A stretch of 55,597 nucleotides of DNA from Candidatus Tayloriibacteriota bacterium (GCA_028286665.1 JAQBRD010000003.1:1-55597), one strand, 5' to 3'; shown: positions 8,613 to 52,982, counted from the stretch's first letter. The notes: a model not told the origin generated them from the letters alone. Program-made: numbers and translations.

Positions 8613-9791
8613 TTACATATTAATAAGTTCGCTTTTCCACAAGCCGCCTACTTTAATAAATGACAAACGCACCATTCTGCCTTTTTCTTCGGCAGATATA
8701 TCTATCAACACAACATGTGTGGGTTCATGGGTTGCGTAGTCAAAAAATGGCATCCAAGCAATGTTCTGGCCTGAAATAGTGTTTTCATTGATAGTTTCTA
8801 AAGTAGCTGAGTACCTTGATATTATGCTTGTCACATAACTCTCTGGTGATGATTCCATATCAATTTTTCTCATTTTATCTGCTCTAGAAGAGACAAGATA
8901 TTCCCTCATTTTAGCAGTATTATTCATGCCAACGATTTTATGAAGCTCCTCGACAGCTGATCTGATCTCCTCTTTTTGAGCATCATTAAGCGTTAACTGG
9001 GGTTTATTTTCTGTTACAGCCCTTCTCTGGTCATTTATAGATTCTTTAGTGCTTTCGATTATATAGTTCTTGTAAATTACCGAAAGAATTATGAGACTAA
9101 TAAAAGACAGGAAAACAAACAGCTTGCTCCTTCTCTTGGTGTCTACAACTACCGTAGAGGCGATAATGTCATGGAGAGTTTGTTTCCTCTCCGTAAAAAG
9201 TGGAAACAGGTATCCGATATTGAGAATAGCAACACTTATAATCGAAGCAGCGGCTCTGCTTATTGCTCGGAGAATACTAATTCTCTCTCCATTCTTATCT
9301 ACAACTCGCAGTCCTAATATTATTTTTCCGGGCGTTGCCTGGAGTTTCGATGCATTGAACAAAGTATAATACATCAAGTAAAAAATTAACCCCACCGTCA
9401 GGCCAACAACCATAGCCGTACCCCATATCTTGAATAGATTGAAGAAAATACTTTCTACGGATCCCTGAGTAGTTAGGTTAATTACGATGTTATTCATCCA
9501 AGGAAAAACCATCGGCGAAATAACGAGACTCGAGAATAAGTTCGACAAGACTACCACAAGAGACACGTCGATAAGATGAGCAACGAGGCGGCGTAGAAAA
9601 GTTGCGTACAACTGATTACTAGCCATTGCTGTATTTTGCGTGTTTGCTGCGGCAGAATTCATAGATTGGAAAGCCTCTTGAATGTCTTCAATCAGCCACC
9701 CTTGGGAACTCAATTCTCTTGTTATTTCGTCTCGAGATACGCCCCTTGAAATTTCACTTCTAACAAAGTTCAAAATTTCTGGTGTTATCAT
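8613..9791 (-). CDS. RDD-family membrane protein with N- and C-terminal extra domains
   Basis: YATFLRRLVAHLID, QATPGKIILGLRVV and RKQTLHDIIASTVVV motifs; AT-rich. Confidence 0.9.
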   Translation of the reverse strand: MITPEILNFVRSEISRGVSRDEITRELSSQGWLIEDIQEAFQSMNSAAANTQNTAMASNQLYATFLRRLVAHLIDVSLVVVLSNLFSSLVISPMVFPWMNNIVINLTTQGSVESIFFNLFKIWGTAMVVGLTVGLIFYLMYYTLFNASKLQATPGKIILGLRVVDKNGERISILRAISRAAASIISVAILNIGYLFPLFTERKQTLHDIIASTVVVDTKRRSKLFVFLSFISLIILSVIYKNYIIESTKESINDQRRAVTENKPQLTLNDAQKEEIRSAVEELHKIVGMNNTAKMREYLVSSRADKMRKIDMESSPESYVTSIISRYSATLETINENTISGQNIAWMPFFDYATHEPTHVVLIDISAEEKGRMVRLSFIKVGGLWKSELINM

Positions 9792-9884
9792 AAATTAAAT
9801 TAGATTAAGAATAATATAGATGTAAACCAAGGTTGATATGTGAGATAAATATATCATATGTTTCGAATTTCTTGACTGTCAGGC

Positions 9885-9924
9885 AAAATAAAAGCAACAC
9901 CCAGAAGAGTGCTTTTTATTTTTT
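9885..9924. terminator. Terminator-like inverted repeat adjacent to repeat copy B
   Basis: AAAATAAAAGCA...TGCTTTTTATTTT. Confidence 0.55.
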
Positions 9925-9951
9925 TGCGGGGCGTCTCGGGCTAGAACCTTT
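9925..9951. repeat. Degenerate direct repeat copy B (tRNA-3'-end-like / att-like)
   Basis: TGCGGGGCGTCTCGGGCTAGAACCTTT. Confidence 0.7.
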
Positions 9952-10118
9952 CTCGGCTAAGCCCTGCAAGGTTGTTTCAAAGAAATTTAGTATACCATTT
10001 TGACGCGACTCGAGCGCATTAGAAAGTTATGAAGGTGACACAGATTAATACATTTAGTTATATATTGACATTATAATATTATATCAGCTTCAGAACTGCT
10101 CGCCATAACTTTTATCTA

Positions 10119-11591
10119 CTAGTACCTGAGATAGTCACCGACCTGATCCATCCTCCGCAGCATAGCCATCCGTCGGTCAAATAATACATCAGCAAGTCGA
10201 TACGCTTGTTTGGCCGCTTGAAGCGCCTCTTGGGTTTCCATGGTCTTTAGTTGTCGACCCACATCTTGAGTACTTTCTCCAACCATCATGAGGGCATTAG
10301 CAATAGATTTGAGGCTGTCCACATCTTCTTTAACGTTTCTTGAACGCATTGTACCAATAGTTTCAACGCTATCCTGTAGGCGAGCAAATGACGCTGACAT
10401 CTCATCAAAATCTTGCGGCTCTTTTATGTCCATTTCACCGAGTTTTTTCATTGTCGAAGACATGCGGCCAATTTCATTGACATCAATGAGTTCCGCCAAA
10501 CGCTCATCATCTCTATTTCGGAGAACTCTGTCGAGCGATCCGAAATAATCAGACATCTGCTCTACAGTCTTTTTATACCCGCCCACTGATTCCGGTGACA
10601 CAAAAAAAGTTTCTGATTCCCTAGATGCTTCATTTTCAAGTGAAGGAGTATTTATACCGAGCGATTCTCTGACTTTTCTCAATGCTTCCGCATCTTGTTC
10701 TATCACCTTCGGTATTTCAAATTTACTTGGCTCAACCGGACCAGCCTCTTCCGTCTTTTGTTCCACTCGCTTTTCGGCTACCCCCGCCTTTTCGGGATTT
10801 TTCGGAAAATGTGTCTCTCCCGCATTTCTAAAATCAGAATGGAGCTTATCAACTTGACCATAATAGCTCAAAACTTCCTGCTCCGAACCATCAGCTTTTC
10901 TCACGGTGTATGGCGTAAAGGATGTATCAGTAAATCCGCGACCGGCCATGACCTGACTTCGCAACGCATCTCGCTTTCCGAAACGGCCACCGAGCGACTT
11001 CAATTCTTCTGTGCGTTCCGGATCCATATCCTTGAAGAAAGCATCTCGTCTTTTTCCAAGATCGAGCTCCAGATTATCCTTATCTGAACGCAACCAGACC
11101 TCATCTTCTTGACCGACTCCACGCTCTCTCATTCCCTTCTCAACTTCTTTATGGCGTGCGGTTATATCACGTAATCTATTGAGATCGCTTTCGTACTTTC
11201 GGATAAAATCAGACTCTTCCGCTGGCAATGACCGCACTTCTTGCTCGCTCTTCAAAACACCCGCCAATTCAGAATCGGGTGATATTTTCTCCGTCATCAA
11301 CTCCAACTTTTCGTCAGCATCTCCGTGACTAAATATAATGTATTCGGGATTGATAGTACCAGCTTCCACTTCCTTCAACTCTTCATTATATGAAGCTATT
11401 TTTTCCTGCTCTGCTTCCTGTTGCTGAACATCAATTTTCGAAATTAGGACAAAATCGTCAGATAGGTGAGTTTCTTCCGTGCGTTTTTTTGCAGATGCAA
11501 TATCTTCCTTTATCTTATCGCTCGCCTTCATCCTCAGAACTTCTATTGGCGTAATCTCCTGTGTTGGTATGGGTTGTTCTAGCTTTTCCAT
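10119..11591 (-). CDS. Hypothetical acidic coiled-coil protein
   Basis: Long open frame rich in E/K/D; start placed at MEKLEQ after a TGn-TATTAT -10 element. Confidence 0.75.
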   Translation of the reverse strand: MEKLEQPIPTQEITPIEVLRMKASDKIKEDIASAKKRTEETHLSDDFVLISKIDVQQQEAEQEKIASYNEELKEVEAGTINPEYIIFSHGDADEKLELMTEKISPDSELAGVLKSEQEVRSLPAEESDFIRKYESDLNRLRDITARHKEVEKGMRERGVGQEDEVWLRSDKDNLELDLGKRRDAFFKDMDPERTEELKSLGGRFGKRDALRSQVMAGRGFTDTSFTPYTVRKADGSEQEVLSYYGQVDKLHSDFRNAGETHFPKNPEKAGVAEKRVEQKTEEAGPVEPSKFEIPKVIEQDAEALRKVRESLGINTPSLENEASRESETFFVSPESVGGYKKTVEQMSDYFGSLDRVLRNRDDERLAELIDVNEIGRMSSTMKKLGEMDIKEPQDFDEMSASFARLQDSVETIGTMRSRNVKEDVDSLKSIANALMMVGESTQDVGRQLKTMETQEALQAAKQAYRLADVLFDRRMAMLRRMDQVGDYLRY

Positions 11592-11610
11592 TGTGTGGTA
11601 GAATAATAAC

Positions 11611-11991
11611 ATGCAATTTACTGATGTCAAAACAGCTGATGAATACATGAATTTGGTCAATAAATATTCTTGGCTCGTCGACTCAGAGCTCAAAAAAGTT
11701 GAGCTTAATATCAAGGAGCATCCAGCTCATTTGGATATGAATATCGAATCTCTACCTAAGCTGATCTCGCTCGTGAATGTGATAGGATATCTGAGAGGAC
11801 AAAATAACGCATTCATCGAAATACGACCCCATGACGTAATTGAATATCAACCTGAGTTGTATAAAAATGAAGATGCATTCGAGTCTCGGCTACACGCTAT
11901 AATCACGACCATATGTGTAGATCCTAAAAATCTTGCGCTGTGCAAATCTACCCTCGAGCGGCACTTCATCGAGTATCGACTAAAGAAATAA
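11611..11991 (+). CDS. Hypothetical protein
   Basis: 126-aa ORF preceded by TGG-TAGAAT extended -10 (leaderless). Confidence 0.65.
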   Translation: MQFTDVKTADEYMNLVNKYSWLVDSELKKVELNIKEHPAHLDMNIESLPKLISLVNVIGYLRGQNNAFIEIRPHDVIEYQPELYKNEDAFESRLHAIITTICVDPKNLALCKSTLERHFIEYRLKK

Positions 11992-12022
11992 GATCAAAAA
12001 TTATTAATATAAATTAAAAAAT

Positions 12023-12529
12023 ATGAACGAGCAAGAAAAAGAGATCAAAAATCAAAATGGATTCGATGGCGTGCATGAGCTTCCTGGATCGGCTACTTTA
12101 TTTCAGGCTCGAAAGGGTGAAAAATACGGAATCTACTCATCTTCTAGAAAAGCGCTTGTCGTCCCTGTCGAGTTTGATGCGGTAAATCTTCAAGTCGATA
12201 AAGACAGGGTTTCAGTTGAGAAGGCAGGTAAGCACGGCATGTATTCTATCTCGCACGAGAAAATTGTCGTGCCGATTGAATGGGATTTTGTGAGTACCTC
12301 ACCAAATCCTACTAACACTGACACCTACGAAGTAGTAAATGGGAAGAAGCATGGTGTGTATTCACGTTTGGAATCGAAGCTCATCATGCCTATCGAATAT
12401 GACACCATCATAGAATTGGTCGGTTCAGACCACTTCAAGGATTCTCCTTACAATGGACAATACCGCGTACAGCTTGAAGAAAAAATTGGTAGGTTTGATC
12501 CAAAGACGCAGTCTGTAACTTGGAATTAA
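12023..12529 (+). CDS. WG-repeat-like beta-repeat protein
   Basis: Three K(Y/H)G(I/M/V)YS....K.(V/I).P.E(F/W/Y)D repeats. Confidence 0.7.
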   Translation: MNEQEKEIKNQNGFDGVHELPGSATLFQARKGEKYGIYSSSRKALVVPVEFDAVNLQVDKDRVSVEKAGKHGMYSISHEKIVVPIEWDFVSTSPNPTNTDTYEVVNGKKHGVYSRLESKLIMPIEYDTIIELVGSDHFKDSPYNGQYRVQLEEKIGRFDPKTQSVTWN

Positions 12530-12815
12530 TCTGAATCGTCAGATTCTTTCTCTATAACTTATCAATGACCGAGGACGGCTTTTTTCACCATCACGAATTT
12601 TCAACTGCCATTTCATAATATGCCATATGATCCGAGATTAGTCGGGTTAAGTGACAAATAGCTATATGTAGCTAGGCGTCTCGTGCGCGATAACCTAGCT
12701 CTAATTGGCGGAGTGAGATTCGGTCACAGGTATTTTTCTACTGAAAAATCCCGCGACCCCGCCTCGCTCGCCTACGCGAGCTCCGGCTTTCTCATCTACG
12801 CTCTGCTTCACGCAG

Positions 12816-12856
12816 AAATGAAAAAAAGAACTGCAGAAGCAGTTCTTTTTTCATTT
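12816..12856 (-). terminator. Terminator downstream of tRNA-Ser
   Basis: AAATGAAAAAAAGAACTGC-AGAA-GCAGTTCTTTTTTCATTT. Confidence 0.75.
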
Positions 12857-12858
12857 TG

Positions 12859-12945
12859 CGGAGAGAGCGGGATTCGAACCCGCGATGCCCTTTCGGACAT
12901 TCTACGGTTCCGGGGTAGCCCATTCGACCGCTCTGGCATCTCTCC
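12859..12945 (-). tRNA. tRNA-Ser (GGA), long variable arm, atypical anticodon loop
   Basis: GGAGAGA/TCTCTCC acceptor stem, G73, GGTTCGAATCCC T arm, long variable arm; anticodon arm CTACC-CCGGAAC-CGTAG. Confidence 0.85.
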
Positions 12946-13011
12946 ATCGACCACGATAGTAACACATAACAACCTCATAGGAAAACTAAAAAATATATTT
13001 TTTGTTTTTCC

Positions 13012-14034
13012 CTACCAACCTCCGCTCGCACCGCCTCCCCCCGAGCTTCCCCCGCCGAATCCTCCGAATCCGCCTCCGCTCGAGCCGCCAAAGCCTCCCG
13101 ATCCCCCGAAGCCTCCGCCGCCGATCCACCACGGCGGACGCCGGCCGCTCGTCATGGAGCTTGCGAACGCTTTCGAGACGATGTAATCGAAGATGAGGCC
13201 GATGATGGCGAAGGCAGCAATGGCAATGATGCCGATGAAAAGGAATCCATATATGAAGCCGACGACAACTCCGGCGATCGCGCCGAGGACGCCGCCGAGC
13301 CACCAGGATTTCGATCTGCCGAGGATGCTCGTGCACCAGATGAGGGCGAAGACGATAAAGAATATCCAGTTTCCGCTTCCGCCTCGCGAAGAGGATTCGC
13401 CACCCGAACGGTTGTCAGGATTTCCAGCACCACTTATATATTCAGGATCCTTCGATATCGTTCCGATGATGACATCTGTCGCACCGTCGACGCCTTCATA
13501 ATAATGACCGGCTTTGAACGCAGGTGTCATGACATTACGGATGATGCTGCTCGCGACAGAGTCCGTGATGACCGGCTCGAGGCCGTAGCCGACTTCGATG
13601 CGGATCTTGCGATCATCCCGGGATATGAGGATGAGCAGGCCGTTGTCCTGCTGATTGGGTGTACCTAAAGCATTCGTGCCGACACTTTTGGCCGAGCCGA
13701 TTCCCCATTCCTGAAAAAGCTTCTCGCCGAAATTCTCCACGCTGTCGCCGCCAAGATCCTTCACCGTCGCGATCACGATCGCGTTGCCGGTCGTCTTTCC
13801 GAAATCGACGAGCTTCGTCGCGAGCGCGTCGCGTTCAGCCGAGGAAAACATTCCCGCGAAGTCGTTGACGAGACCGACCGGCTTGCCTGGGCTCTGGTAT
13901 GCATATGCCGGGGCCGCGCTGAATCCGCCGAACATGCCGAATGCGGCAAATACGGCAAATGCCGCCGCGAAGAGCGGCAGCATGAGCGCTGAAATGAAAA
14001 CGACCGCACCTTTTTTTGCGCGAATCGTTTTCAT
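13012..14034 (-). CDS. TPM domain (DUF477/YgcG-like) membrane protein with Gly-rich tail
   Basis: VNDFAGM, WGIG...DNGLLILI...RIEVGYGLE motifs; ends GGGSSGGGGASGGW. Confidence 0.9.
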   Translation of the reverse strand: MKTIRAKKGAVVFISALMLPLFAAAFAVFAAFGMFGGFSAAPAYAYQSPGKPVGLVNDFAGMFSSAERDALATKLVDFGKTTGNAIVIATVKDLGGDSVENFGEKLFQEWGIGSAKSVGTNALGTPNQQDNGLLILISRDDRKIRIEVGYGLEPVITDSVASSIIRNVMTPAFKAGHYYEGVDGATDVIIGTISKDPEYISGAGNPDNRSGGESSSRGGSGNWIFFIVFALIWCTSILGRSKSWWLGGVLGAIAGVVVGFIYGFLFIGIIAIAAFAIIGLIFDYIVSKAFASSMTSGRRPPWWIGGGGFGGSGGFGGSSGGGFGGFGGGSSGGGGASGGW

Positions 14035-29641: not shown

Positions 29642-31228
29642 ATGAACAAAAAACCACAGGTAGCTCTTATCGTGCTCGACGGCTGGGGCCATCGCGAAGA
29701 CACGACGCACAATGCTGTCGCGGCGGCGAAGACGCCGTATTTCGATTCGATCTGGAAGCAGTATCCGCATTCACTCCTCGAAGCATCCGGCCTCGCCGTC
29801 GGACTCCCTGAAGGCCAGATGGGCAATAGCGAGATCGGCCACACCACCATCGGCGCCGGCAAGGTGATCGATACCGACCTCGTGCGCATCGCGAAAGCCA
29901 TCAAGGATGGCGAATTCAAGACCAACCCGGCTTTCGTGAAGCTTTTCAATCATGTGAAGAAATATGATTCGACGCTCCATGTGAAAGGCTTGCTCAGCAC
30001 CGGCGGCGTCCATAGCCACGAAGAGCATCTGTTCGCATTCCTCAAAGCCGTGAAGGAAATCGGCATCAAGAAAGTCGTCATCCACGCATTCACTGACGGC
30101 CGAGATACGCCGCCGCAAAGCGCAGCTGATTCTCTTGAGAAGCTCGAGCACCTCATCGCGGAACTCGGCATCGGAAAGATCGCTACCGCCTCAGGCCGCT
30201 TCTATGCAATGGACCGCGACAACAATTGGGATCGCCTCGCAAAAGCAGAGGCAGCGATGTTCGAATGCAAGGCCAATGCCTGCACGCCGAAGAAGCCATC
30301 TGAATTCCTCCGCGAACTCTACAAAAATGGAACAAAGGATGAGACGCTCGACCCGATCGTCTTTCTCGATGAGAACGGCAAAGGATACAAAGTCGAGCAG
30401 AATGACGGCGTCTTCTTCTTCAATTTCCGCAAGGACCGAACGCGCATGCTCTCGAAGAAGCTCGCCGATATGGCGAAGGCGAAGAATCTCGCATACGTGA
30501 CCCTCACAGAATATGATCCCGAGATCATCGCCGACGTTGCCTTCCCCACCATCGCAATCGAGACGACGCTTGCGAAAGAAGTCGCCGAAGCGAACCTCAC
30601 CCAGGCGCACATTGCTGAAACCGAGAAATTTCCGCACGCGACGTATTTCCTCAATGGAGGAACTGACAAGCCGCACAAAGGAGAGAAGCATATCATGCTC
30701 GACAGCCACAAAGTTCCAGACGCGAAGCGCGCGCCGCATGTGAAGAAGGACGCCGACGGGACTTTCGCATTCACCCATGACATGGCCCCGATGATGCGCG
30801 CAGAAGCGATCGCAGACAAGGCGATCGAGGAGGTCAATGCTGGCACCGATCTCATTTTCATCAATTTCGCAAATCCAGACATGGTCGGGCACACGGCGAA
30901 TGTTCCCGCGATCATCGAGGCCGTCGAGGAAACCGATGCGCAGCTCAAGCGCGTCTGCGATGCGATGCTCGCGCGAGCGAAGGCTAGCGGCGCTGAAGAA
31001 TTCATCTTCGTGACTGCAGACCACGGCAATGCCGAAGTGAATATTGATCCGATGACCGGCGAGAGACATACATCTCACACGATCAGCCCGGTTCCAGCCA
31101 TTCTCATACAGTCGAATGTGATGCACGCGAAGCTTGCGCATGGAGGCCTCGCCGACATCACCCCGACGATTCTGAAAATCCTCGGCGTACCGCAGCCGAA
31201 ATCGATGACAGGCAAATCGCTTATCTAA
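29642..31228 (+). CDS. gpmI: 2,3-bisphosphoglycerate-independent phosphoglycerate mutase
   Basis: LDGWG, GQMGNSEIGH, DGRDTPP, GRFYAMDRD, NPDMVGH and TADHGNAE motifs. Confidence 0.97.
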   Translation: MNKKPQVALIVLDGWGHREDTTHNAVAAAKTPYFDSIWKQYPHSLLEASGLAVGLPEGQMGNSEIGHTTIGAGKVIDTDLVRIAKAIKDGEFKTNPAFVKLFNHVKKYDSTLHVKGLLSTGGVHSHEEHLFAFLKAVKEIGIKKVVIHAFTDGRDTPPQSAADSLEKLEHLIAELGIGKIATASGRFYAMDRDNNWDRLAKAEAAMFECKANACTPKKPSEFLRELYKNGTKDETLDPIVFLDENGKGYKVEQNDGVFFFNFRKDRTRMLSKKLADMAKAKNLAYVTLTEYDPEIIADVAFPTIAIETTLAKEVAEANLTQAHIAETEKFPHATYFLNGGTDKPHKGEKHIMLDSHKVPDAKRAPHVKKDADGTFAFTHDMAPMMRAEAIADKAIEEVNAGTDLIFINFANPDMVGHTANVPAIIEAVEETDAQLKRVCDAMLARAKASGAEEFIFVTADHGNAEVNIDPMTGERHTSHTISPVPAILIQSNVMHAKLAHGGLADITPTILKILGVPQPKSMTGKSLI

Positions 31229-32511
31229 TCTCCCTTTTCTTCAAGCCTCTTTTCAAGCCTCAGGATCGCCGCCATATATTTCACGAACAGCACCATGAGC
31301 GTCGTCCACAAGACGCCGATCGCATAGCCTGCGACGACATCGGAAAGCCAATGCACATTGAGGTAGAGGCGGCTCAGCGGTACGAGAAAGCTGATGATGA
31401 CCGCGGCAGCGATCGCTGCTTCCCTCGCGTGATGGTTCTTGATATGGATGAAGCAGACATAAATGAGCGCCACGCAGCCGAAGGCAGCCATTCCCGCATG
31501 AAGGCTCGGGAAGCTGAAGTCGCTGTAGAGCGTAGCGCCGCCCTCAGGCCGCACGCGCATGACGAGCTCCTTGATGAAGCCGATCCAGCCCATCGTGCCG
31601 CCGAGCGACAGGATGAGGAATGCGAAGTCTTTGTAGTTTCGTTTCAAAAAATAAATGCCTGTCGCGATAATGCCGAGCAAGGCGAACGTCACCGGACTCA
31701 GCGCATTCGTGATGAATGACATGATTCCTGTCATGAGCGAGCCTGCAGGAGCAGCATGAGCCGACATCCACACGTTCACTGCGAGATCGAGCTGCTCCAT
31801 GAACGAGTGGGCGCTGACCGTATCCTGGATCATCTTGAAGCTCACGTACAGCGAGACGAGCATGAGTCCGAGTGTGAAAAGATCGTACTTGACGAAGACA
31901 TGCCATCGCTTATTGATGAAGCTATATGCCCAGATCATGATGAGCGCGATGATGAAGCCTGCGAGGACGAACTTGCCCATGACTCCTGCAGCAGCATGGT
32001 ATCCGGCGCCGAAGACATACCCGATGAGCACCGAGCTCACTGCCCAGCTCACGCCGGCGATGATATCGTACAGCCAGAACTTTCCGGCGTGTCCGCCGCT
32101 TGCGCCGACGATGAATGGCATGAGCGTTCTCGTGAGCGGATTGAATCGTCCGAAAATGATTGCCTTGCCGGTATGCTTCGCGACGAGCTGCTTCGCTTTT
32201 TCAATATGGCTCTCACGGATCGAAAGGTACCTGCTTACGCGTTCGAGAAAACCGAATCCGTATTTCCTGCCGAGGCAGAACGCTATCCCATCGCCGAGTA
32301 TGGCGCCGAATCCTCCGAGCATGAGTACTGCAGGCAGGCTCAGCACTCCGATTTTGGCCATGAATCCCGCGAGGATGATGATGGTATGCCCAGGAACGAC
32401 CGAACCGATGAGCGGCAAGCCTTCGAGGATGGACGTAATAAAAATGACCGCATATCCGCCATGAGCGACGATGCTTTCGAGATGATGGATGAACGGCGCG
32501 AAGAGATGCAT
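31225..32511 (-). CDS. Bifunctional DedA/VTT + PAP2 membrane protein
   Basis: DedA: LEG...PG, GD...F.LGR, FGRF.P..R; PAP2: K....RVRP, SFPSLH, SRLYLNVHWLSDV. Confidence 0.93.
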   Translation of the reverse strand: MHLFAPFIHHLESIVAHGGYAVIFITSILEGLPLIGSVVPGHTIIILAGFMAKIGVLSLPAVLMLGGFGAILGDGIAFCLGRKYGFGFLERVSRYLSIRESHIEKAKQLVAKHTGKAIIFGRFNPLTRTLMPFIVGASGGHAGKFWLYDIIAGVSWAVSSVLIGYVFGAGYHAAAGVMGKFVLAGFIIALIMIWAYSFINKRWHVFVKYDLFTLGLMLVSLYVSFKMIQDTVSAHSFMEQLDLAVNVWMSAHAAPAGSLMTGIMSFITNALSPVTFALLGIIATGIYFLKRNYKDFAFLILSLGGTMGWIGFIKELVMRVRPEGGATLYSDFSFPSLHAGMAAFGCVALIYVCFIHIKNHHAREAAIAAAVIISFLVPLSRLYLNVHWLSDVVAGYAIGVLWTTLMVLFVKYMAAILRLEKRLEEKGD

Positions 32512-32556
32512 GGAGGTAGTATAGCAAATATTCAAGCTCGTCGAATGAATGCATAT

Positions 32557-32590
32557 AAAAAGGAGAGGCTCTGTCTTGGAAGACAGAGCC
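32557..32590 (-). terminator. Intrinsic terminator of the candidate large ncRNA
   Basis: Minus strand GGCTCTGTCT-TCCA-AGACAGAGCC-TCTCC-TTTTT. Confidence 0.75.
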
Positions 32591-33144
32591 CTTTGTGACT
32601 GATTACTCGATTTGTGCTATTTCGGTTCCTGTGAAGTTACATACCCTCACAGGAACCTAGAGAAGAAGAACTGCATCATGGTTTACCTTCAGGATTTTTT
32701 CCAGTAATTTCTTCTCGAAATTACTGATAAATCCGGAAAGCTAGTTTGTTTTTAATCTATCAATGCGGTATTGCTGGTTACTCGGCCCATTTGGCCTTAA
32801 CCCCTTTTTCTTCTTTTCATAGTGCAAACAATCTATGATCAGAAGGATGAGCTACTCTTATCCTCGCGATGTCTAGCCTAGTTTAACTAGTGCTAGTTAC
32901 ATCTGCCTTCATGGTGTATCGACGTTGATTCATCGGTCAATCGATACCTTTGTGACTATTTCACTGCTGAAGGTGATTTGTTAGTCGCTGAGCCTGCCAC
33001 TCCTTGGCTTGGCTATCTTTCCCTATTAGTGCGTTTGGCTTCATAAGCCGTTGAGTTCCGCTAACCTGAGGAACCTGCACTCTGTGATTATATCTTCCGA
33101 AGCCGATTGGCTTCTACGTAACGTCTTGTCGTTTACTCTGTTAC
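32557..33144 (-). ncRNA. Candidate large (~590 nt) highly structured non-coding RNA, family unrecognised
   Basis: No minus-strand ORF of 60 aa or more; own promoter and terminator; at least 10 stem-loops plus long-range pairings. Confidence 0.65.
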
Positions 33145-33150
33145 ATGTGT

Positions 33151-33178
33151 ATCATAGCATATACATGCAATTTGTCAA
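33151..33178 (-). promoter_or_regulatory. sigma70 promoter for the candidate ncRNA
   Basis: TTGACA (33178-33173)-16 nt ending TGC-TATGAT (33156-33151). Confidence 0.7.
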
Positions 33179-33280
33179 GTACATTTACCATATGCAAAAT
33201 AAAATCTTTATGAATTTCTTATCTGAAACTGCAGCAGAAAAGTTCGACGAGTTGCGGCATGAGACGGTATACTGCTCTAC

Positions 33281-33952
33281 ATGAAATTACTGATCATCGA
33301 GGATGATATCGCCGCCGCCGCATTCATGAAAACAAGCTTCGAGTCCGCTTCGCATGTCGTCGATCTCGCGCACAATGGCACCGACGGATCCTATGCCGCG
33401 CGAATCAATCCATATGACGTGATCATCCTCGACTTCTCGATGCCGAAGAAAAACGGACTGAAAGTCTGCGAAGAGATCCGTTCCGCCGGCAAGACCGTGC
33501 CGATACTCTTCCTTTCAGTCATCGGCGATACTGCGAAGAAAGTCGATGCGCTCGAGAAGGGCGCCGACGATTATATGACCAAGCCATTCTCATTCGACGA
33601 GCTGCATGCCCGAGTGCGAGCGCTCGCGCGCAGGCCGCATAAGATCGAGACATCCATACTTACCGCCGGAGATCTGAGCCTCAATACCGAGCGTCAGGTA
33701 GCAGTCCGCGGAGGCACCGCAATATATCTGACAAGAAAGGAATATACCCTGCTCGAGTATCTGATGCGGAATCAGGGCACGATATTATCGCGTGGTATGA
33801 TCATGGAGCATGTCTGGAACGCGGACAGCGATCCTTTTTCAAATACCATCGAAGCGCACATCCTCAATCTTCGGAAGAAGGTGAATATCGGACGGAGAAA
33901 GGATTTCATCCGGAATGTTCCAGGACGAGGATACATGATCGCTGTCGAATAG
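33281..33952 (+). CDS. OmpR/PhoB-family response regulator
   Basis: LLIIEDD, IILDFSMP, GADDYMTKPF, LTRKEYTLLEYL and IRNVPGRGY motifs; TATACT -10 just upstream (leaderless). Confidence 0.96.
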   Translation: MKLLIIEDDIAAAAFMKTSFESASHVVDLAHNGTDGSYAARINPYDVIILDFSMPKKNGLKVCEEIRSAGKTVPILFLSVIGDTAKKVDALEKGADDYMTKPFSFDELHARVRALARRPHKIETSILTAGDLSLNTERQVAVRGGTAIYLTRKEYTLLEYLMRNQGTILSRGMIMEHVWNADSDPFSNTIEAHILNLRKKVNIGRRKDFIRNVPGRGYMIAVE

Positions 33953-34064
33953 TGCTTCATGAATATTTCATATTTTTTTGATCAGCAATTCATGCCGGTC
34001 AGATAGAATGACTGGGATCATGAAGGTCGACGTGATCAACGATCATATAAACAAACATACCCAA

Positions 34065-34166
34065 ATGAGCATTCTCATCAAACAACTATTGCGTGACGCC
34101 GAGCAGCGGAAGAAGGCTTCCGTAGCAGCGCATTCGGAAAGCGACTTTGCCCCATGGAACGGCTAG
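34065..34166 (+). CDS. Putative ComX-like signalling peptide precursor (33 aa)
   Basis: MSILIKQLLRDAEQRKKASVAAHSESDFAPWNG; single Trp third from the C-terminus; lies between the response regulator and kinase genes. Confidence 0.55.
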   Translation: MSILIKQLLRDAEQRKKASVAAHSESDFAPWNG

Positions 34167-34183
34167 AGTCTGCAACATCACAA

Positions 34184-35611
34184 ATGGCAGCCATAACGCG
34201 CTTCGTGCAAAGGCGCGTTATCGCGCTGATACGTCCGAAATCAACTGACGAGGATACGCATCGCGAAGAATTGATTCTCAATACCATTCTTCTCACCTCG
34301 ATCGCACTGCTGCTTGTGCTCGATGCGACCATACTCTACAATCTCCCCGCTTTCGGAGCCGCATACCAGGGCGTGCATTTCATTCCGTTCACGATCATCC
34401 TGGCCATATTCGCAAGCTTGTTCGTCCTATCGAGGCGCGGAAAAGTCCGCCTGGCATCCTATCTCCTCATCAGCTTCTATATAATCGGCACCATATACTG
34501 CGGTTATGAATGGGGCGCAAGCCTGCCTGCGACGCTTCTCACGACGACGCTCGTCATCATCACTTCAAGCATCCTTATCGGAACCCGATGCGGCATGATC
34601 GTCTCGGTCGCAATGGTGTGCATTCTTTCCTATCTCGGTTTCCACGAATACAAAGTGCTCGGCGTCCAAGCATGGAAATACACCACCATCAGCACGACAG
34701 ACATCATCACCTATTCGGGAATCTTCTTCTTCATCACGCTCCTTTCATGGCTCTCAAACAGAGAAATCGAGAACTCGTTGAAACGTGCCCGGAAATCAGA
34801 GGGAGAATTGAGAACGGAACGCGACAATCTTGAGATGACCGTCACTGAGCGGACGGAGTCCCTGCGCAAGATGCAGCTTGATCAGATGGTCTACCTGTCG
34901 AGATCCGCTGAATTCGGAGAACTTTCCCGAGGATTATTCCACGATCTCATGACTCCCCTTGTTTCGATTTCGCTCGGCATAGATGCGCTCGGAAAGACCA
35001 GCTCGCCAGAAGTGAGGACTCTCCGCGAATCCCTCAGCAAGACCATCGAAGCATCCAACAGAATGGGAGAGTTCATGTCGACAGTACGGAAGACGATGCG
35101 GTCCTCAGAGTCTTCCCTGCAACCAGCGACCGCACCTCAGCTCGAGAAAACCTGCGATCTGAAGGAGTCTCTCGAATACATCCTTCAGATTCTTGGCTAT
35201 AAGATGCGGAATGCAGACGTGAAAGTAATCCATGAATATATCGGATTCAACGAAAATCCGATCATATGCAAAGATCATGTATTGATAGAGAGAATCCTCC
35301 TCAACCTCATATCGAATGCGATCGACTCATATGCGAGCTTGCCCGAGCTCGATGAAAAGAAAATCGAAGTCTGCCTGAGCAAATCAGAGGAATGCATCGA
35401 GATACAGGTCTCAGATCATGGCTGCGGCATCCCGAAGCAAAATATGAAACAGATATTCAATCCTTTCTTCACGACAAAATCGAATGAGAGAGGAAGCGGA
35501 CTCGGACTTACTATCGTGAAAACGATCGCAGAAAAAGATCTCGGCGGAACCGTCGGAATAAAGAGCGAAGCAGGAAAAGGCACCGATATACAGATAACGT
35601 TTCCTCATTAA
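34184..35611 (+). CDS. Membrane-embedded sensor histidine kinase (HisKA/HATPase)
   Basis: About 5-6 N-terminal TMs with short loops; FHDLMTPL, NLISNAID, DHGCGI, FNPFFTTK and GSGLGL boxes; alternative start at 34154. Confidence 0.95.
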   Translation: MAAITRFVQRRVIALIRPKSTDEDTHREELILNTILLTSIALLLVLDATILYNLPAFGAAYQGVHFIPFTIILAIFASLFVLSRRGKVRLASYLLISFYIIGTIYCGYEWGASLPATLLTTTLVIITSSILIGTRCGMIVSVAMVCILSYLGFHEYKVLGVQAWKYTTISTTDIITYSGIFFFITLLSWLSNREIENSLKRARKSEGELRTERDNLEMTVTERTESLRKMQLDQMVYLSRSAEFGELSRGLFHDLMTPLVSISLGIDALGKTSSPEVRTLRESLSKTIEASNRMGEFMSTVRKTMRSSESSLQPATAPQLEKTCDLKESLEYILQILGYKMRNADVKVIHEYIGFNENPIICKDHVLIERILLNLISNAIDSYASLPELDEKKIEVCLSKSEECIEIQVSDHGCGIPKQNMKQIFNPFFTTKSNERGSGLGLTIVKTIAEKDLGGTVGIKSEAGKGTDIQITFPH

Positions 35612-35623
35612 TCAAATCTCAAT

Positions 35624-37510
35624 ATGCACACCAAACAACTCGACCATATGATCGAGCAGCTTTCGACGCACCTCGACTCCATGCATTCCAAAGACAAGCT
35701 GCTGCAAAGCAGAAACATATTCATCCCTGCGCTTATTCTGCTTGCGCTTCATTCAGGAAAAGAACATAGGCGAATCCAGAATATCTGCGACACGCTCATC
35801 GCTCATATTCTTGAAAATAAAAATGATGCCTGGACATGGAATTACTGGCCGAGATCGACAGGAAAGAAAACCTCAGCATCAGAACGGCCATCCTACCCCG
35901 ACGACATGGATGACACGAGCTGCGCGATCGCAGCTATCGCGCTCTGGCGGCCTGAAATGCTCTCAGGAGAAGCATTTGCGAATATAACGAAAGCTCTCAT
36001 CGCCTGCGAAACGCAGCCTGGCGGCCCTTATTTCACCTGGATAGGCGGCATGAGAGCCTCGCAGACTCCTGACATAGGCGTGAATGCGAACATCTCTTTC
36101 ATGCTTTCCCTCATAGGAGTATCGATGCCCGAACTCACAGAGTCAATCGATCATGAATTGCGCTTGGAGCAGCCCGCATCACAATTCTATTCGAACAGAA
36201 TGATGATCTTGTATTTCATTTCGCGCAATTATTCGGGAAAGGAGAAATCCCGGCTGATAGAAAAAATATGCACTGAAGGCAAGTCCAATCTCATGGATGC
36301 AGCTCTCGCAGCGAGCTCGCTCATCCGGCTTGATGCTCCTGATGGAATCATTTCTGAACACATCGCCAAGCTCGGCTCGTTCACGGTGTCGATCGGAAAA
36401 AGTGAGGCTCACCCGATGTATATCGAAAAGATCGCAAACGGAATCATCCAATATGCGACATCTGAAGCCTTCACCGCTGCAGCTGCCTTGGAGGCGTTGC
36501 TTCTCTGCAGATTGCGCCTCCAGGAGAAAACTGAGAAAGGACGCCGCGACATCGAAGCGGCAGCCGAGAATCAGATCCAATTGGCAATCATCGAAAAACT
36601 GCATTCTGAGACAAAGAGCCTCTCTTCCGAAATGAAAGCAGCATTCGACGCGCATCTTGAAAAATTCAGATCAGCAAGCCACTGGAACGAGATCGCGCTC
36701 CTGCCCTATTCGCTCGTTCGCAATTTTCCAGATGCAGATGCTGTCGCGGCAGTTGTCGGAGCTGTCGGCGTCCTTGGCTGGATCGCATACACCATCGACG
36801 ACATGAGCATGGATGAACCGATGTCCGGTCATGGGAAAGAAATTCCTCTCTCGCGTTTCATCCATAGGAAGATCGAGCATCTGATCAGGGCGGAATTGCT
36901 GCCAGCGGCAGCAGAAGGCACTCGATCAAGAATAGAAAGATACATCGGCAAAGTCTTCATCGATCTCGACAATGCGCATCATGCCGAAATCCTCGGCAAA
37001 AAAGTATCAATGACCGAAAAGTCATTCGGGCACGCGCTCCCGGTCATGCTCATCGCGCATGTATTCTCAAAAAATATCCGAAACGGGGATGCCGAGCAGA
37101 GCGTCTGCGAAAATCTGCTGAAGATGCTGGAGATGAGCTGCTCGCACTACATACTCGCCCGGCAGCTGTCAGACGACGCGCACGATTGGCAGGAAGACAT
37201 GAATTCAGGCCGGCTTACCGACGTAACTGAAATGATGCAGAGAGCCGCGAACGCTCCTATGACTGCATTCGCGCCGGAAAATGCAGAGAAGAGCATGCGT
37301 GACATATTCTGGAATGAATGCGCTCTTCGGATAGCTGACAGGATCCTCGAGCACGCCATGAATGCGAAACAGCTCGCCGAGAAATGCAGTATTCTCGACG
37401 AGCGTTTCGATATGAGTTTCCTGATCCGATGCATCTCGCGATATGAGGCTATCGGGAGATCGATGACTGAAGATATTCGGAAGACGAAGGAATTCCTTGC
37501 TGCGTACTGA
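35624..37510 (+). CDS. Fused class II terpene-cyclase-like + class I isoprenoid synthase/prenyltransferase-like protein
   Basis: N-terminal WTWNYW, YPDDMDDT (DxDD) and D..VNAN; C-terminal YTIDDMSMD, EKS and QLSDDAHDWQED...GRLT. Confidence 0.65.
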   Translation: MHTKQLDHMIEQLSTHLDSMHSKDKLLQSRNIFIPALILLALHSGKEHRRIQNICDTLIAHILENKNDAWTWNYWPRSTGKKTSASERPSYPDDMDDTSCAIAAIALWRPEMLSGEAFANITKALIACETQPGGPYFTWIGGMRASQTPDIGVNANISFMLSLIGVSMPELTESIDHELRLEQPASQFYSNRMMILYFISRNYSGKEKSRLIEKICTEGKSNLMDAALAASSLIRLDAPDGIISEHIAKLGSFTVSIGKSEAHPMYIEKIANGIIQYATSEAFTAAAALEALLLCRLRLQEKTEKGRRDIEAAAENQIQLAIIEKLHSETKSLSSEMKAAFDAHLEKFRSASHWNEIALLPYSLVRNFPDADAVAAVVGAVGVLGWIAYTIDDMSMDEPMSGHGKEIPLSRFIHRKIEHLIRAELLPAAAEGTRSRIERYIGKVFIDLDNAHHAEILGKKVSMTEKSFGHALPVMLIAHVFSKNIRNGDAEQSVCENLLKMLEMSCSHYILARQLSDDAHDWQEDMNSGRLTDVTEMMQRAANAPMTAFAPENAEKSMRDIFWNECALRIADRILEHAMNAKQLAEKCSILDERFDMSFLIRCISRYEAIGRSMTEDIRKTKEFLAAY

Positions 37511-50442: not shown

Positions 50443-50533
50443 CTCCGCGAATCGCTTCAAAATCGGTCTCAGGCAAATTGTCTGGGACCGATTTATTTTA
50501 AATTGACTTCTCCTAACAGGACGTAATATTCGG

Positions 50534-50606
50534 AGCCAAAGTCCGGGATCGAACCGGAGACCCTCGCTTTACGAAAGCGATGCTCTACCAACTGAGCTAC
50601 TTTGGC
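50534..50606 (-). tRNA. tRNA-Thr (CGT)
   Basis: Cloverleaf; anticodon arm TCGCT-TTCGTAA-AGCGA. Confidence 0.95.
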
Positions 50607-50621
50607 ATATTTGCGCTGAAC

Positions 50622-51179
50622 CTACTTTGCAAGATACTCGGACAATTTCTCATCGATCTGCGCCCGGAACTCCCCCATCGTTCCGTCGTTCATGAGGAGG
50701 ACGTCCGCAGCTTTGATGCAGTCGGAGAGGCTCATCCGGGCCGGATCATCCGACTTCATCTCGACCTCCTGCTGTGCGGCGAATTTCTCGAATGTGACAT
50801 TGTCAGTCGCGCTCTTGCGGAGCACTGCTCTTTTATACCTGATTTTGAGGTCGGCGTCCACTGCCACGAGCAGGAAGTTCTCCTGCTGCTTCAGGAAGCC
50901 GACTTCGCCCATCGTCCGGACCGATTCGATGACGGCATTCTTGCCGGATTTCTCTGCCCGCCGATACAATGATTCGATGATGTGGCTTGCTCCGAATCGA
51001 GTGCGGAGATCGTCGGCAACCGCCTTCATGCTCGGACGCTCGACAGGCAAGCCGCGCTTCTCGATCTCCTCGACGAGGAAATCCCGGACGGAATAGAAAC
51101 CGAAGCCCTTCGTCGTGAGATGGCTCGTGAGCTCCCCTTTTCCCGACCCGTTTGTTCCCGTGACGCCGATGATGATCAT
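50622..51179 (-). CDS. P-loop nucleotide kinase (dephospho-CoA kinase/UPF0200-like)
   Basis: GVTGTNGSGKG Walker A; VIESVR and IRYKRAVLR segments. Confidence 0.8.
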   Translation of the reverse strand: MIIIGVTGTNGSGKGELTSHLTTKGFGFYSVRDFLVEEIEKRGLPVERPSMKAVADDLRTRFGASHIIESLYRRAEKSGKNAVIESVRTMGEVGFLKQQENFLLVAVDADLKIRYKRAVLRKSATDNVTFEKFAAQQEVEMKSDDPARMSLSDCIKAADVLLMNDGTMGEFRAQIDEKLSEYLAK

Positions 51180-51201
51180 TAATCTTTATTATACCTTAGG
51201 G

Positions 51202-51274
51202 AGCCGACGTCCGGGATTGAACCGGAGACCTCGTCATTACCAATGACGTGCTCTACCAACTGAGCTACATCGGC
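51202..51274 (-). tRNA. tRNA-Thr (GGT)
   Basis: Cloverleaf; anticodon arm CGTCA-TTGGTAA-TGACG. Confidence 0.95.
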
Positions 51275-51351
51275 TTACTACTCGCACAAACTACCATGTC
51301 AGCCATGTCGGCTTACAGAGACATACTAATACACTTGGCCTTTCTTTTCAA

Positions 51352-52635
51352 TTACTTCGCCTTGATCGGCAGATACGCTGTGACCGTCGTCCCCTTTCCG
51401 AGGACGGATGAAACGGAGATCGTGCCGCCATGAAGCTCGATGATCTTCTTGGTCGTATAGAGGCCGACGCCGCTCTCATTCGGCTCGAGCGAGATGGCGT
51501 TCTTCCCTCGATGAAGCCGATCGAAGACATATGGAACATCCTCTTCCGAAATTCCGATGCCAGTATCGGTAACCGACATCACCATCTTCTCCCCATCGGA
51601 CGTTACGGAAATATCGACATTGCCCTTCGGCGAATACTTGAATGCATTATCGACGATGTTGAGGAATGCGGCCTTGAGCTTCTTGAAATCGCCTTCGATC
51701 TCGAGCTTTTCCGGAAGATTCAGATTGACTTTCACTGAACGGACGAGCGCGACATATTCGAGATCGCCGAGGATCGCCTTGATGAGGCGAGGCACGTCGA
51801 CAGGCACGCGGACGAGCTTGAGCTGATCGGTGCTTGAGCCTTCGGCGGTGGTGAGCATCTCATTGACGATGCCGATCGCATCGCCAACGCGAAGGATGCT
51901 TTCATCGATGAGTTCGCGATTCTGCGGAGATACGCCCACGTCTTCTTTGAGTGTCTCCAGGGCCCATCGGAGGCCTGCAAGCGGCGTGCGGAGCTGGTGC
52001 TGGGCAACGCTCAGGAAATCATGCTTGAGCTGCTCGATCTGCGTGAATTCGCTCAGGCGGCGGTCGATCTCTTCTTTCTCATTTTTCTGATGAAGCGTAT
52101 CGACGACGATGCGATGCATGAGATAGCAGATCAGGCCGAAGAGTACCGTGACCGTGACATGGCGGATGATGAGCGACGGGTCCGTCCAAGCTCGCGGATA
52201 CAGCACGATGAGCATCGCGAGCATGATCGTGAGCACGAGGCCTACATGCTCGGTGATGCGTTCGTCGAGGTAGACCGCGGAGACGATGACCGGAAAGACG
52301 AGCAGGAATATGAACGGGCTTCCCAGCCCCCCGGCCGAGATGATGATGCACATGAAGAAGAACGAGTACGAATAGCGGGCAGCGGTGAAGAATATCTTCT
52401 TATTGAATTTTTCATGAAGCGCGAAGAAAAGCACGTGCAGCACGGCAAGCGAGACGATGGAAAACAGGACTGCCTGCGGATACCGCATCCAGGTGAAGAA
52501 ATCAGGCGCAAGATACATGCCCAGCCCGAGTGCGATCGGTATGAGAAGGCCCAACCCTTCTACAAGATAATAATACTTCCGGAGCCGAAACTCTTGGAAT
52601 ACCGCCTTGCCTGAAGTGCGAGTATGATCCGTCAT
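51352..52635 (-). CDS. Orphan membrane sensor histidine kinase
   Basis: About 6 TMs; QHQLRTPL, NIVDNAFKY, DTGIGI and SGVGL boxes. Confidence 0.93.
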   Translation of the reverse strand: MTDHTRTSGKAVFQEFRLRKYYYLVEGLGLLIPIALGLGMYLAPDFFTWMRYPQAVLFSIVSLAVLHVLFFALHEKFNKKIFFTAARYSYSFFFMCIIISAGGLGSPFIFLLVFPVIVSAVYLDERITEHVGLVLTIMLAMLIVLYPRAWTDPSLIIRHVTVTVLFGLICYLMHRIVVDTLHQKNEKEEIDRRLSEFTQIEQLKHDFLSVAQHQLRTPLAGLRWALETLKEDVGVSPQNRELIDESILRVGDAIGIVNEMLTTAEGSSTDQLKLVRVPVDVPRLIKAILGDLEYVALVRSVKVNLNLPEKLEIEGDFKKLKAAFLNIVDNAFKYSPKGNVDISVTSDGEKMVMSVTDTGIGISEEDVPYVFDRLHRGKNAISLEPNESGVGLYTTKKIIELHGGTISVSSVLGKGTTVTAYLPIKAK

Positions 52636-52636
52636 G

Positions 52637-52710
52637 CGCAGCCAAGCGGGCTCGAACCGCCAACCTCTCGCGTGACAGGCGAGTGCTCTAACCAGTTGAG
52701 CTATGGCTGC
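52637..52710 (-). tRNA. tRNA-Asp (GTC)
   Basis: Cloverleaf; CTCGC-CTGTCAC-GCGAG anticodon arm; G73. Confidence 0.95.
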
Positions 52711-52761
52711 AATGCTGCTTATTATACATAAATATGCAGACCTCGCAATCGCTTTGAAGTG

Positions 52762-52834
52762 TGTCGGGGGTGGGGATTGAACCCACGACCCCGGGCTTAT
52801 GAGTCCCGTGCTCTACCAACTGAGCTACCCCGAC
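52762..52834 (-). tRNA. tRNA with CAT anticodon (elongator Met or Ile2)
   Basis: Cloverleaf; loop CTCATAA; paired 1:72 position, so not the initiator. Confidence 0.88.
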
Positions 52835-52909
52835 ATGGAACGCCTATTTTTTCAAGCCCTCAAAATATAACAAAAAGTGGCGAAAAACGCCACCCTTTGT
52901 AATATCTTG

Positions 52910-52982
52910 TTGCGGAGGCTGGAGTCGAACCAGCGAGACCTAGGTTATGAGCCTAGTGGGCTAACCGCTACCCTACCCCGCG
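52910..52982 (-). tRNA. Initiator tRNA-fMet (CAT)
   Basis: 5' CGCGGGG with C1:A72 mismatch; anticodon arm CTAGG-CTCATAA-CCTAG. Confidence 0.88.

Follow-up and report, generated by a model that had tools for sequence, protein, structure and literature searches.

The subject of this analysis is a locus at positions 32,557-37,510 of a stretch of DNA from Candidatus Tayloriibacteriota bacterium (GCA_028286665.1 JAQBRD010000003.1:1-55597), the whole of which, 55,597 nucleotides (nt) long, is called the window. Four genes lying on the same strand of this locus and encoding a response regulator, a small peptide with a Trp residue close to its C-terminus, a membrane histidine kinase and a two-domain terpenoid-type enzyme form one conserved unit which recurs across Patescibacteria. 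With a confidence slightly better than even, this cassette is read as a peptide signalling system that works in the manner of the ComQXPA system and is equipped with a maturase of the ChrPC type. A large part of bacterial diversity belongs to the Patescibacteria, which live on other microbes, and little is known of the way in which they sense their partners or each other. The four genes of the cassette are the following.

33281-33952, plus strand: OmpR/PhoB-type response regulator of 223 amino acids (aa), with matches to Response_reg (E 3e-25) and Trans_reg_C (E 1.7e-23).
34065-34166, plus strand: precursor peptide of 33 aa, MSILIKQLLRDAEQRKKASVAAHSESDFAPWNG, matched by the hidden Markov model (HMM) of the peptide family at E 9.6e-6.
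34154-35611, plus strand: membrane histidine kinase of 485 aa, with a match to HATPase_c (E 2.4e-26).
35624-37510, plus strand: two-domain maturase of 628 aa, beginning 12 nt after the stop codon of the kinase gene.

The evidence for a single unit comes from the best 80 of 223 stretches carrying relatives of the enzyme, with one genome per species; two of these 80 loci are identical in sequence to separately fetched loci (L020 and L021) and were counted once only. A kinase homologue occurs directly 5' of the enzyme gene in 75 of the 80 loci (71 of the 72 with enough flanking sequence), a gene for a peptide of 32-40 aa lies just before the kinase gene in 70 (69 of the 70 with enough flank), and in 58 the kinase gene is preceded, on its own strand, by a regulator homologue (56 of the 65 with at least 2700 nt of flank). 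The preliminary description of the locus had named as a check the conserved synteny of enzyme, kinase, regulator and a small Trp-terminal open reading frame (ORF) across Patescibacteria, and these counts answer it in the affirmative. That description had also placed all four co-oriented genes where they are found, except that the kinase ORF begins at 34154, the start formerly given at 34184 being an internal Met. In 12 of the 80 loci (12 of 70 with flank) a canonical polyprenyl synthetase (PF00348, E 7e-58) follows directly 3' of the maturase on the same strand, e.g., at 7872-8918 of L028, the other eleven being L041, L046, L048, L050, L072, L074, L080, L084, L090, L099 and L101; in these loci the unit is a five-gene cassette with its own donor supply. 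Beyond the cassette genes and the polyprenyl synthetase, no conserved neighbour was found among the 80 loci. One locus, L098, is a cassette variant devoid of the two-component pair: a peptide of the family (5738-5842) directly precedes the maturase, and no kinase or regulator homologue occurs in the 6 kb upstream.

The genome to which the window belongs (G000) measures 933 kb and is 94% complete. A word-indexed protein search with the 628-aa enzyme returned 7 relatives only; a profile search with its family gave 2,634 cluster representatives at E ≤1e-3 and 1,253 at E ≤1e-30, which corresponds to a metagenomic breadth of more than 1,250 distinct clusters at 50% identity. Among the 150 matches listed, the proteins measure 555-724 aa, mostly 620-670 aa. 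Depending on the sample, the enzyme was found in 13 of 400 genomes (~3%) spread evenly over the phylum and in 6 of 60 close relatives. Clusters of the same length from Bacteroidota (scores 0.94 and 0.93) and Chloroflexota, which appear in the ESM Atlas, are to be taken as leads only. In five genomes (G005, G025, G042, G251 and G352) the maturase match falls into two separate pieces, which could be split genes for the cyclase and the prenyltransferase, frameshifts or contig ends.

The 33-aa peptide is a member of a real gene family. Its start is the internal ATG at 34065 of a longer frame extending from 33978 to 34166, its C-terminus reads DFAPWNG, and Trp31, the third residue from the end, is invariant in the family. 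In the three closest loci a small ORF situated in the gap between regulator and kinase genes ends in FAPWNG, FAPWNG and FAPWND, respectively; because one of these ORFs lies clear of the kinase start, the conservation of the peptide is not a by-product of the overlap of the two genes. An HMM was seeded with 53 peptides selected by their position, the peptide of the window not being one of them, and was run against 38,072 six-frame ORFs from 1.03 Mb of loci. All matches at E <0.01 lie just upstream of a kinase gene (in 70 of the 80 loci, in the window and in three separately fetched loci), and the next best match elsewhere has an E-value of 1.4. Seed peptides match the model by construction, and the matches from outside the seed number about 17, among which are the peptide of the window and those of eight loci with the Trp further from the end. 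An alignment of 62 sequences, all of which have the Trp and at least 90% of which have M1, L9 and R15, yields the consensus MxxLxxxxLTDKxAR...PW followed by 0-6 residues. The Trp-tailed peptide of the preliminary description has thus become a family with an invariant Trp near the C-terminus.

Taken alone, the 628-aa protein has no family match in Pfam or NCBIfam. Its AlphaFold2 model, built on a 140-sequence alignment, reaches a predicted local distance difference test (pLDDT) score of 92.9 and a predicted template modelling score of 0.90; a model built from the single sequence had a pLDDT of 40 and was discarded. In the predicted fold, residues 3-299 resemble a class II terpene cyclase, the closest structure being the drimenol synthase 9mhs_B (Z 27.8, root-mean-square deviation (rmsd) 2.7, 271 residues aligned), followed by MstE (Z 23.9) and squalene-hopene cyclase (Z 23.8); Foldseek (E 5.5e-7) and a sequence-profile search of the PDB (9mhs, E 1.4e-17) give the same assignment. 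Residues 310-611 resemble a trans-isoprenyl diphosphate synthase (trans-IPPS), with Z 23.4 and 23.1 for solanesyl-diphosphate and heptaprenyl-diphosphate synthases (9jqs_A: Z 23.4, rmsd 2.8, 273 aligned) and Z 19.6 for the Trp farnesyltransferase Ord1 (9v4g_A: rmsd 3.8, 269 aligned). The extra cyclase domain which the preliminary description had attributed to a prenyltransferase-like enzyme is borne out by this fold match and by an intact DxDD acid motif (D94-x-D96-D97): P92, D94 and D96 of the sequence PDDxDDT are invariant in the 140 sequences and D97 is conserved in at least 90% of them. The prenyltransferase domain has kept both Asp-rich motifs, D393...D397 and D517-D518-x-x-D521, with D393, D397, Q514, D517, D521 and D525 invariant in the same 140 sequences and D518 conserved in at least 90%. 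In this respect, a 2026 review (PMC13290415) describes a Gln residue common to ComQ, PalQ, Ord1 and the P domain of ChrPC, located just before the second Asp-rich motif, which recognises the indole and is the mark of trans-isoprenyl diphosphate synthase (trans-IDS)-like enzymes that prenylate Trp. The invariant Q514 occupies this position in the 628-aa enzyme, which, judging from the modelled fold and its motifs, is best filed as a ChrPC-like maturase.

A prediction of the complex between enzyme and peptide scored 0.69 (three runs, 0.67-0.73), the best of three controls reaching 0.02. Of solved complexes, 58 of 80 attain that mark, as do 2 of 110 mismatched pairs; these counts apply here only roughly, because the prediction used alignments made for this analysis. 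The partner has a pLDDT of at least 61, and the runs agree on at least 61% of the contacts. The confident contacts bring residues 1-19 of the peptide, i.e., its conserved leader, against residues 115-134, 164-170 and 617-628 of the enzyme, including the conserved L125, E129, G133, G134, L168 and F624. The model thus supports a binding of the leader to the enzyme.

With regard to the two-component pair, the presence of Response_reg together with Trans_reg_C (PF00486) confirms the OmpR type proposed for the regulator. The start of the kinase gene overlaps the last codons of the peptide gene, and residues 1-10 counted from the start at 34154 align with the kinase of the closest relative. A hydropathy scan gives four clear hydrophobic segments, about six being read by eye. 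The kinase is devoid of any large outside domain, because the loops measure at most ~18 aa, in agreement with the multi-pass protein described earlier. As to the HisKA type, the core resembles that class, and HisKA itself is a weak match (E 0.017), below the cut-off.

The following sequence of events is proposed for the cassette. The 628-aa enzyme would bind the 33-aa precursor via the conserved N-terminal leader, and its trans-IPPS-like domain, judging from fold and motifs, would prenylate the invariant Trp with a C10-C20 group taken from a prenyl diphosphate. The class II cyclase domain would then protonate the prenyl chain via the acid of its DxDD motif and cyclise it. The lipidated peptide, possibly trimmed, would leave the cell, and its sensor would be the co-translated multi-pass kinase, acting within the membrane, a step suggested by the linkage of the genes. 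Finally, the kinase would phosphorylate the OmpR-type regulator, which would act on the cassette's own promoters and probably on a divergent gene concerned with the recycling of polyprenyl phosphates.

Several points weigh against this reading. The kinase is connected to the peptide by gene order, together with the analogy to ComQXPA and PalPXQ. In lantibiotic-type clusters, such a kinase/regulator pair can serve an antibiotic and not a pheromone. No conserved exporter or leader protease was found in the cassette among the 80 loci, and the Trp residue is not confidently placed in the active site by the complex model. Moreover, G000 has no match to PF00348 (trans-IPPS), PF01255 (UppS), PF02401 (IspH), PF00288 (GHMP kinases) or PF02670 (Dxr), while the control searches gave matches in 10-14 of 14 genomes, and the sister genome G001, which is 93% complete, has no trans-IPPS match.

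The first alternative to be weighed takes the product for a lipopeptide, membrane-active or host-directed, which would be used as a weapon or as an aid to adhesion; the kinase and the regulator would control only its production or self-protection, as in lantibiotic clusters, and no density signal would be involved. Such a role would agree with PMC13290415, according to which the published relatives of this enzyme design come from natural-product pathways and prenylated peptides have been reported to be membrane-active, and also with the ABC or AI-2E-type transporters that lie nearby in 4-5 loci each. It sits less well with the gene content of the cassette: no immunity, transporter or protease gene is conserved, the polyprenyl synthetase of the 12 loci being the largest extra neighbour family, and the overlap of peptide and kinase genes, as well as a make-up reduced to four genes, has its counterpart in ComQXPA and PalPXQ. 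On balance, a lipopeptide without signalling function is considered rather unlikely.

Another set of considerations relates to the origin of the prenyl donor, which is unexplained in G000 because the genes for isoprenoid synthesis are without match. PF00348 occurs in 8 of 10 other cassette-bearing genomes tested, the two without it being G001 and G251, the latter with its enzyme gene in pieces. Either the donor is scavenged or the donor genes lie in unassembled sequence. The gene next to the cassette is of interest here.

31225-32535, minus strand: DedA/UptA-like undecaprenyl-phosphate transporter fused to a PAP2 phosphatase (VTT_dom, PAP2).

This DedA-PAP2 gene, whose product matches the models UptA (E 4e-14), SepP and PgpB (both ~1e-5), is divergent from the regulator gene and lies ~90-114 nt away from it in two relatives; it is present in 3 full and 2 partial loci of the 80. 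The lack of isoprenoid-gene matches in a genome which yet encodes an undecaprenyl-phosphate transporter/phosphatase fusion suggests that polyprenyl lipids may be scavenged by this organism. A further elaboration of the signalling reading holds that the pheromone is made only from host prenyl diphosphate, so that the circuit reports attachment to the host or the host's lipid supply instead of density alone and the regulator switches on the undecaprenyl-phosphate transporter/phosphatase gene; host contact would be reported because neither an isoprenoid pathway nor a trans-IPPS or UppS was found in the lineage. This elaboration is deemed distinctly improbable. If it is true, a peptide bearing a polycyclic terpene would serve Patescibacteria as a chemically encoded sensor of host contact.

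The same neighbour, in the lineage of the window, lends something to another alternative, in which the product of the enzyme is a free terpenoid, or scavenged polyprenyl phosphates are what it acts on, and the small ORF encodes no substrate but a peptide of regulatory or leader function; the solved nearest relatives of the N-terminal domain, the drimenol synthases, indeed use free farnesyl diphosphate. However, the invariant Trp, the conserved leader and the invariant Gln associated with Trp prenylation, the complex prediction that passed against its controls (0.69 vs 0.02) and the rarity of the DedA-PAP2 neighbour among the 80 loci all make a free product very improbable.

Two features of the DNA surrounding the regulator and peptide genes are also of note.

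33198-33217, strand not assigned: conserved box AATAAAATCTTTATGAATTT, in the gap that separates the regulator gene from the divergent DedA-PAP2 gene.
34016-34037, plus strand: hairpin GATCATG-AAGGTCGA-CGTGATC, 27 nt before the ATG of the peptide gene.

The core of the box, ATAAAATCTTTAT, was recognised by eye upstream of the regulator gene in the window and in two related loci (L027 and L065), and makes the box a candidate binding site of the regulator. The kept DedA-PAP2 neighbour and the shared box hint at a co-regulation of the cassette with polyprenyl-phosphate recycling. Direct repeats of the TTCAT/CTTTAT type with a spacing of ~11 nt occur at 33956-34009 of the window and, again by eye, in L024, L027, L035 and L087; they end at the -35 position of a putative peptide-gene promoter, in a pattern matching that expected for an activator of the OmpR/PhoB type.

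The hairpin is located just 3' of a TAGAAT box resembling a -10 element (34004-34009). The MAFFT alignment left the GTCG hairpins out of register, and their enrichment was judged by a background-rate control. The tetranucleotide GTCG occurs between -100 and -15 of the peptide gene in 36 of 68 loci, vs 20% of 85-nt windows elsewhere, and has a closing stem of 7 or more base pairs in 19 of these 36 loci, vs 187 of 4,872 GTCG sites elsewhere (3.8%). The loop (A/G)GTCG(A) is kept and the stem sequences vary between the loci, ~19-23 in number, in which the hairpin stands 17-44 nt before the peptide start; it is missing from loci where little space separates the peptide gene from the regulator and a strong ribosome-binding site precedes the peptide gene. 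The hairpin is probably an RNA element of the 5' leader of the precursor transcript.

The remaining part of the locus, between the regulator and the DedA-PAP2 gene, contains a further element.

32557-33150, minus strand: strongly structured non-coding unit, delimited by predicted promoter, terminator and folding.

The preliminary description had seen here a structured RNA of ~590 nt transcribed divergently from the cassette, and a structured unit is borne out by prediction. A promoter-like site on the minus strand at 33178-33151 (TTGACA-16-TATGAT with TG, 11 of 12 matches) lies 100-130 nt from the regulator start, a terminator-like hairpin occurs on the same strand at 32591-32566, and the 594 nt in between fold with a predicted -188.7 kcal/mol (z -8.2), the 300-nt windows at 32551-32850 giving z -7 to -9. 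The background of these z values consists of 68 plus-strand windows from 1-10 kb of the stretch (mean -0.33, standard deviation 1.18, minimum -4.4). The strand, on the other hand, cannot be told from folding, because z is about -8 on either strand (-8.8 on the plus strand).

The occurrence of the unit does not follow that of the cassette. In two relatives with the same neighbourhood (L020/L027 and L021/L065) it is absent from the site, the gap between the regulator and DedA-PAP2 genes being ~90-114 nt. A BLAST search of 60 relatives returned short promoter-like matches and one 30-nt block, in the genome G055 only. This genome, which has no enzyme, carries the same promoter and a block identical at 28 of 30 nt at the same spacing (L012 1410-1960), at the head of an ORF-free ~1 kb between unrelated genes without Pfam match; its 5' module consists of a hairpin GGAAGC...GCUUCC followed by AGAGUGCGGGUUCCUCAGGUCAGCGGAACU. 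A pattern search of 400 genomes of the class gave 0 matches, and 12 other loci in which a long gap precedes the regulator gene yielded no homologue of the unit. Strong folds detected upstream of the regulator elsewhere (z ~-6 to -8, 12 shuffles) are single long hairpins or, in one case, lie beside a tRNA gene, and were set aside as unrelated to the unit. Rfam returned nothing for the unit at the gathering threshold or at E ≤10, and nothing for the G055 relative. RNase P RNA and tmRNA were ruled out as identities of the unit, both being found elsewhere in G000. Neither terminal inverted repeats nor repeat families were found. By eye, the promoter of the unit is similar to the -10 region which the DedA-PAP2 promoter has in the sister genome, and the window repeats this -10 region just before its own DedA-PAP2 start; because of this likeness and this second copy, the unit may be an insertion into the leader of the DedA-PAP2 gene. 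It is probably an orphan and rare non-coding element, separate from the cassette.

The last alternative, which makes this RNA the effector of the cassette, driven by the regulator from a divergent promoter like the RNAIII of agr, draws on the consensus-like promoter near the regulator start, the terminator, the very strong predicted structure and the conserved box (33198-33217) which immediately precedes that promoter, but is hardly credible, and the analogy is unsupported, because the unit is absent from the site in the two same-neighbourhood relatives, has no homologue in the 12 other long upstream gaps or match in the 400 genomes of the class, and shares its 5' module with the enzyme-less G055, where it stands among unrelated genes.

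Elsewhere in the window, the G+C content, examined over 9000-14000, amounts to 0.39-0.44 at 9-13 kb and rises to 0.58 at 13-14 kb, beside a tRNA-Ser gene (12858-12945), a shift which could be the boundary of an island. Five minus-strand tRNA genes (Thr, Thr, Asp, Met and Met) are clustered at 50532-52982.

Compared with known systems, the cassette shares with agr and its RNAIII the outline of a structured RNA divergent from a peptide-signalling operon, the RNA being a putative one here, and nothing more: it has no genes of the AgrB/AgrD type, its regulator is of the OmpR type and the RNA is not kept together with it in relatives. The drimenol and drimenyl-diphosphate synthases (AsDMS, 9mhs/9m7d, and SsDMS) and MstE represent the nearest solved structures of the N-terminal domain, with PDDLDDT aligning on the acid motif. 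However, the substrates of these enzymes are free prenyl diphosphates or meroterpenoids, and the enzymes occur alone or fused to a HAD phosphatase, none of them to a trans-IPPS-like domain. In PalPXQ from Paenibacillus alvei, one cluster likewise unites the genes for a kinase, for a precursor whose C-terminal Trp is conserved and for a Trp prenyltransferase of the trans-IDS-like kind, whereas PalX possesses an NHLP-type leader of ~100 aa and PalQ, which is devoid of a cyclase domain, requires the Trp at the extreme C-terminus; here 0-6 residues follow the Trp.

In make-up the cassette resembles ComQXPA: overlapping genes on the same strand encode a small precursor whose Trp near the C-terminus is modified, here putatively, an enzyme of the trans-IPPS fold class, a regulator, and a kinase which passes the membrane several times and lacks any large outside domain; no dedicated exporter is known. 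According to PMC13731918, ComX of B. subtilis 168 carries its farnesylated Trp at the third position from the C-terminus, the position that Trp31 has here. In contrast, ComA possesses a DNA-binding domain of PF00196 (PMC4008528) in place of Trans_reg_C (PF00486), the genes are ordered regulator-peptide-kinase-enzyme instead of comQ-X-P-A, the kinase core resembles the HisKA class, and ComQ is a single-domain enzyme said to lack the second Asp-rich motif, which is intact here in an enzyme with a fused cyclase. A census of 2014 found no com-like loci outside Firmicutes (PMC4008528). No literature linking Patescibacteria to ComQ/ComX, or to a prenyltransferase with a precursor peptide, was found in the searches made, although the primary ChrPC paper and its supplements may list the family; a 2024 perspective on Patescibacteria makes no mention of quorum, two-component, histidine kinase, prenyl, isoprenoid or undecaprenyl. 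The earlier view of a system that is ComQXPA-like without being an orthologue is therefore kept for a conserved unit that would work alike, its support being one of analogy, because the design of the enzyme is that of ChrPC and what looks new is its coupling to the kinase and the regulator.

A cassette of this compactness can be tested wholly in E. coli, so that a culture of the organism is unneeded, and, if the proposed signalling is true, the chemistry of terpene-cyclised peptides would reach from natural-product pathways to signalling. As described in the review PMC13290415, ChrPC (Hubrich et al. 2024, Chem 10:3224) is a bifunctional prenyltransferase-cyclase maturase of ribosomally synthesised and post-translationally modified peptides, which uses C10-C20 donors to prenylate a Trp inside a ribosomal peptide, the fused domain then cyclising the chain. 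The enzyme design is thus already known, because ChrPC combines a prenyltransferase and a cyclase acting on a peptide Trp. Both folds, both sets of motifs and the Gln marker recur in the 628-aa enzyme, which is likened to ChrPC by description and not by sequence, and a precursor with an acceptor Trp is encoded beside the enzyme in 70 of the 80 loci. What differs is that the enzyme is tied here to a kinase/regulator pair and that its precursor, of 32-40 aa, has a leader family of its own; the coupling of a ChrPC-like design to a kinase/regulator pair in Patescibacteria looks new.

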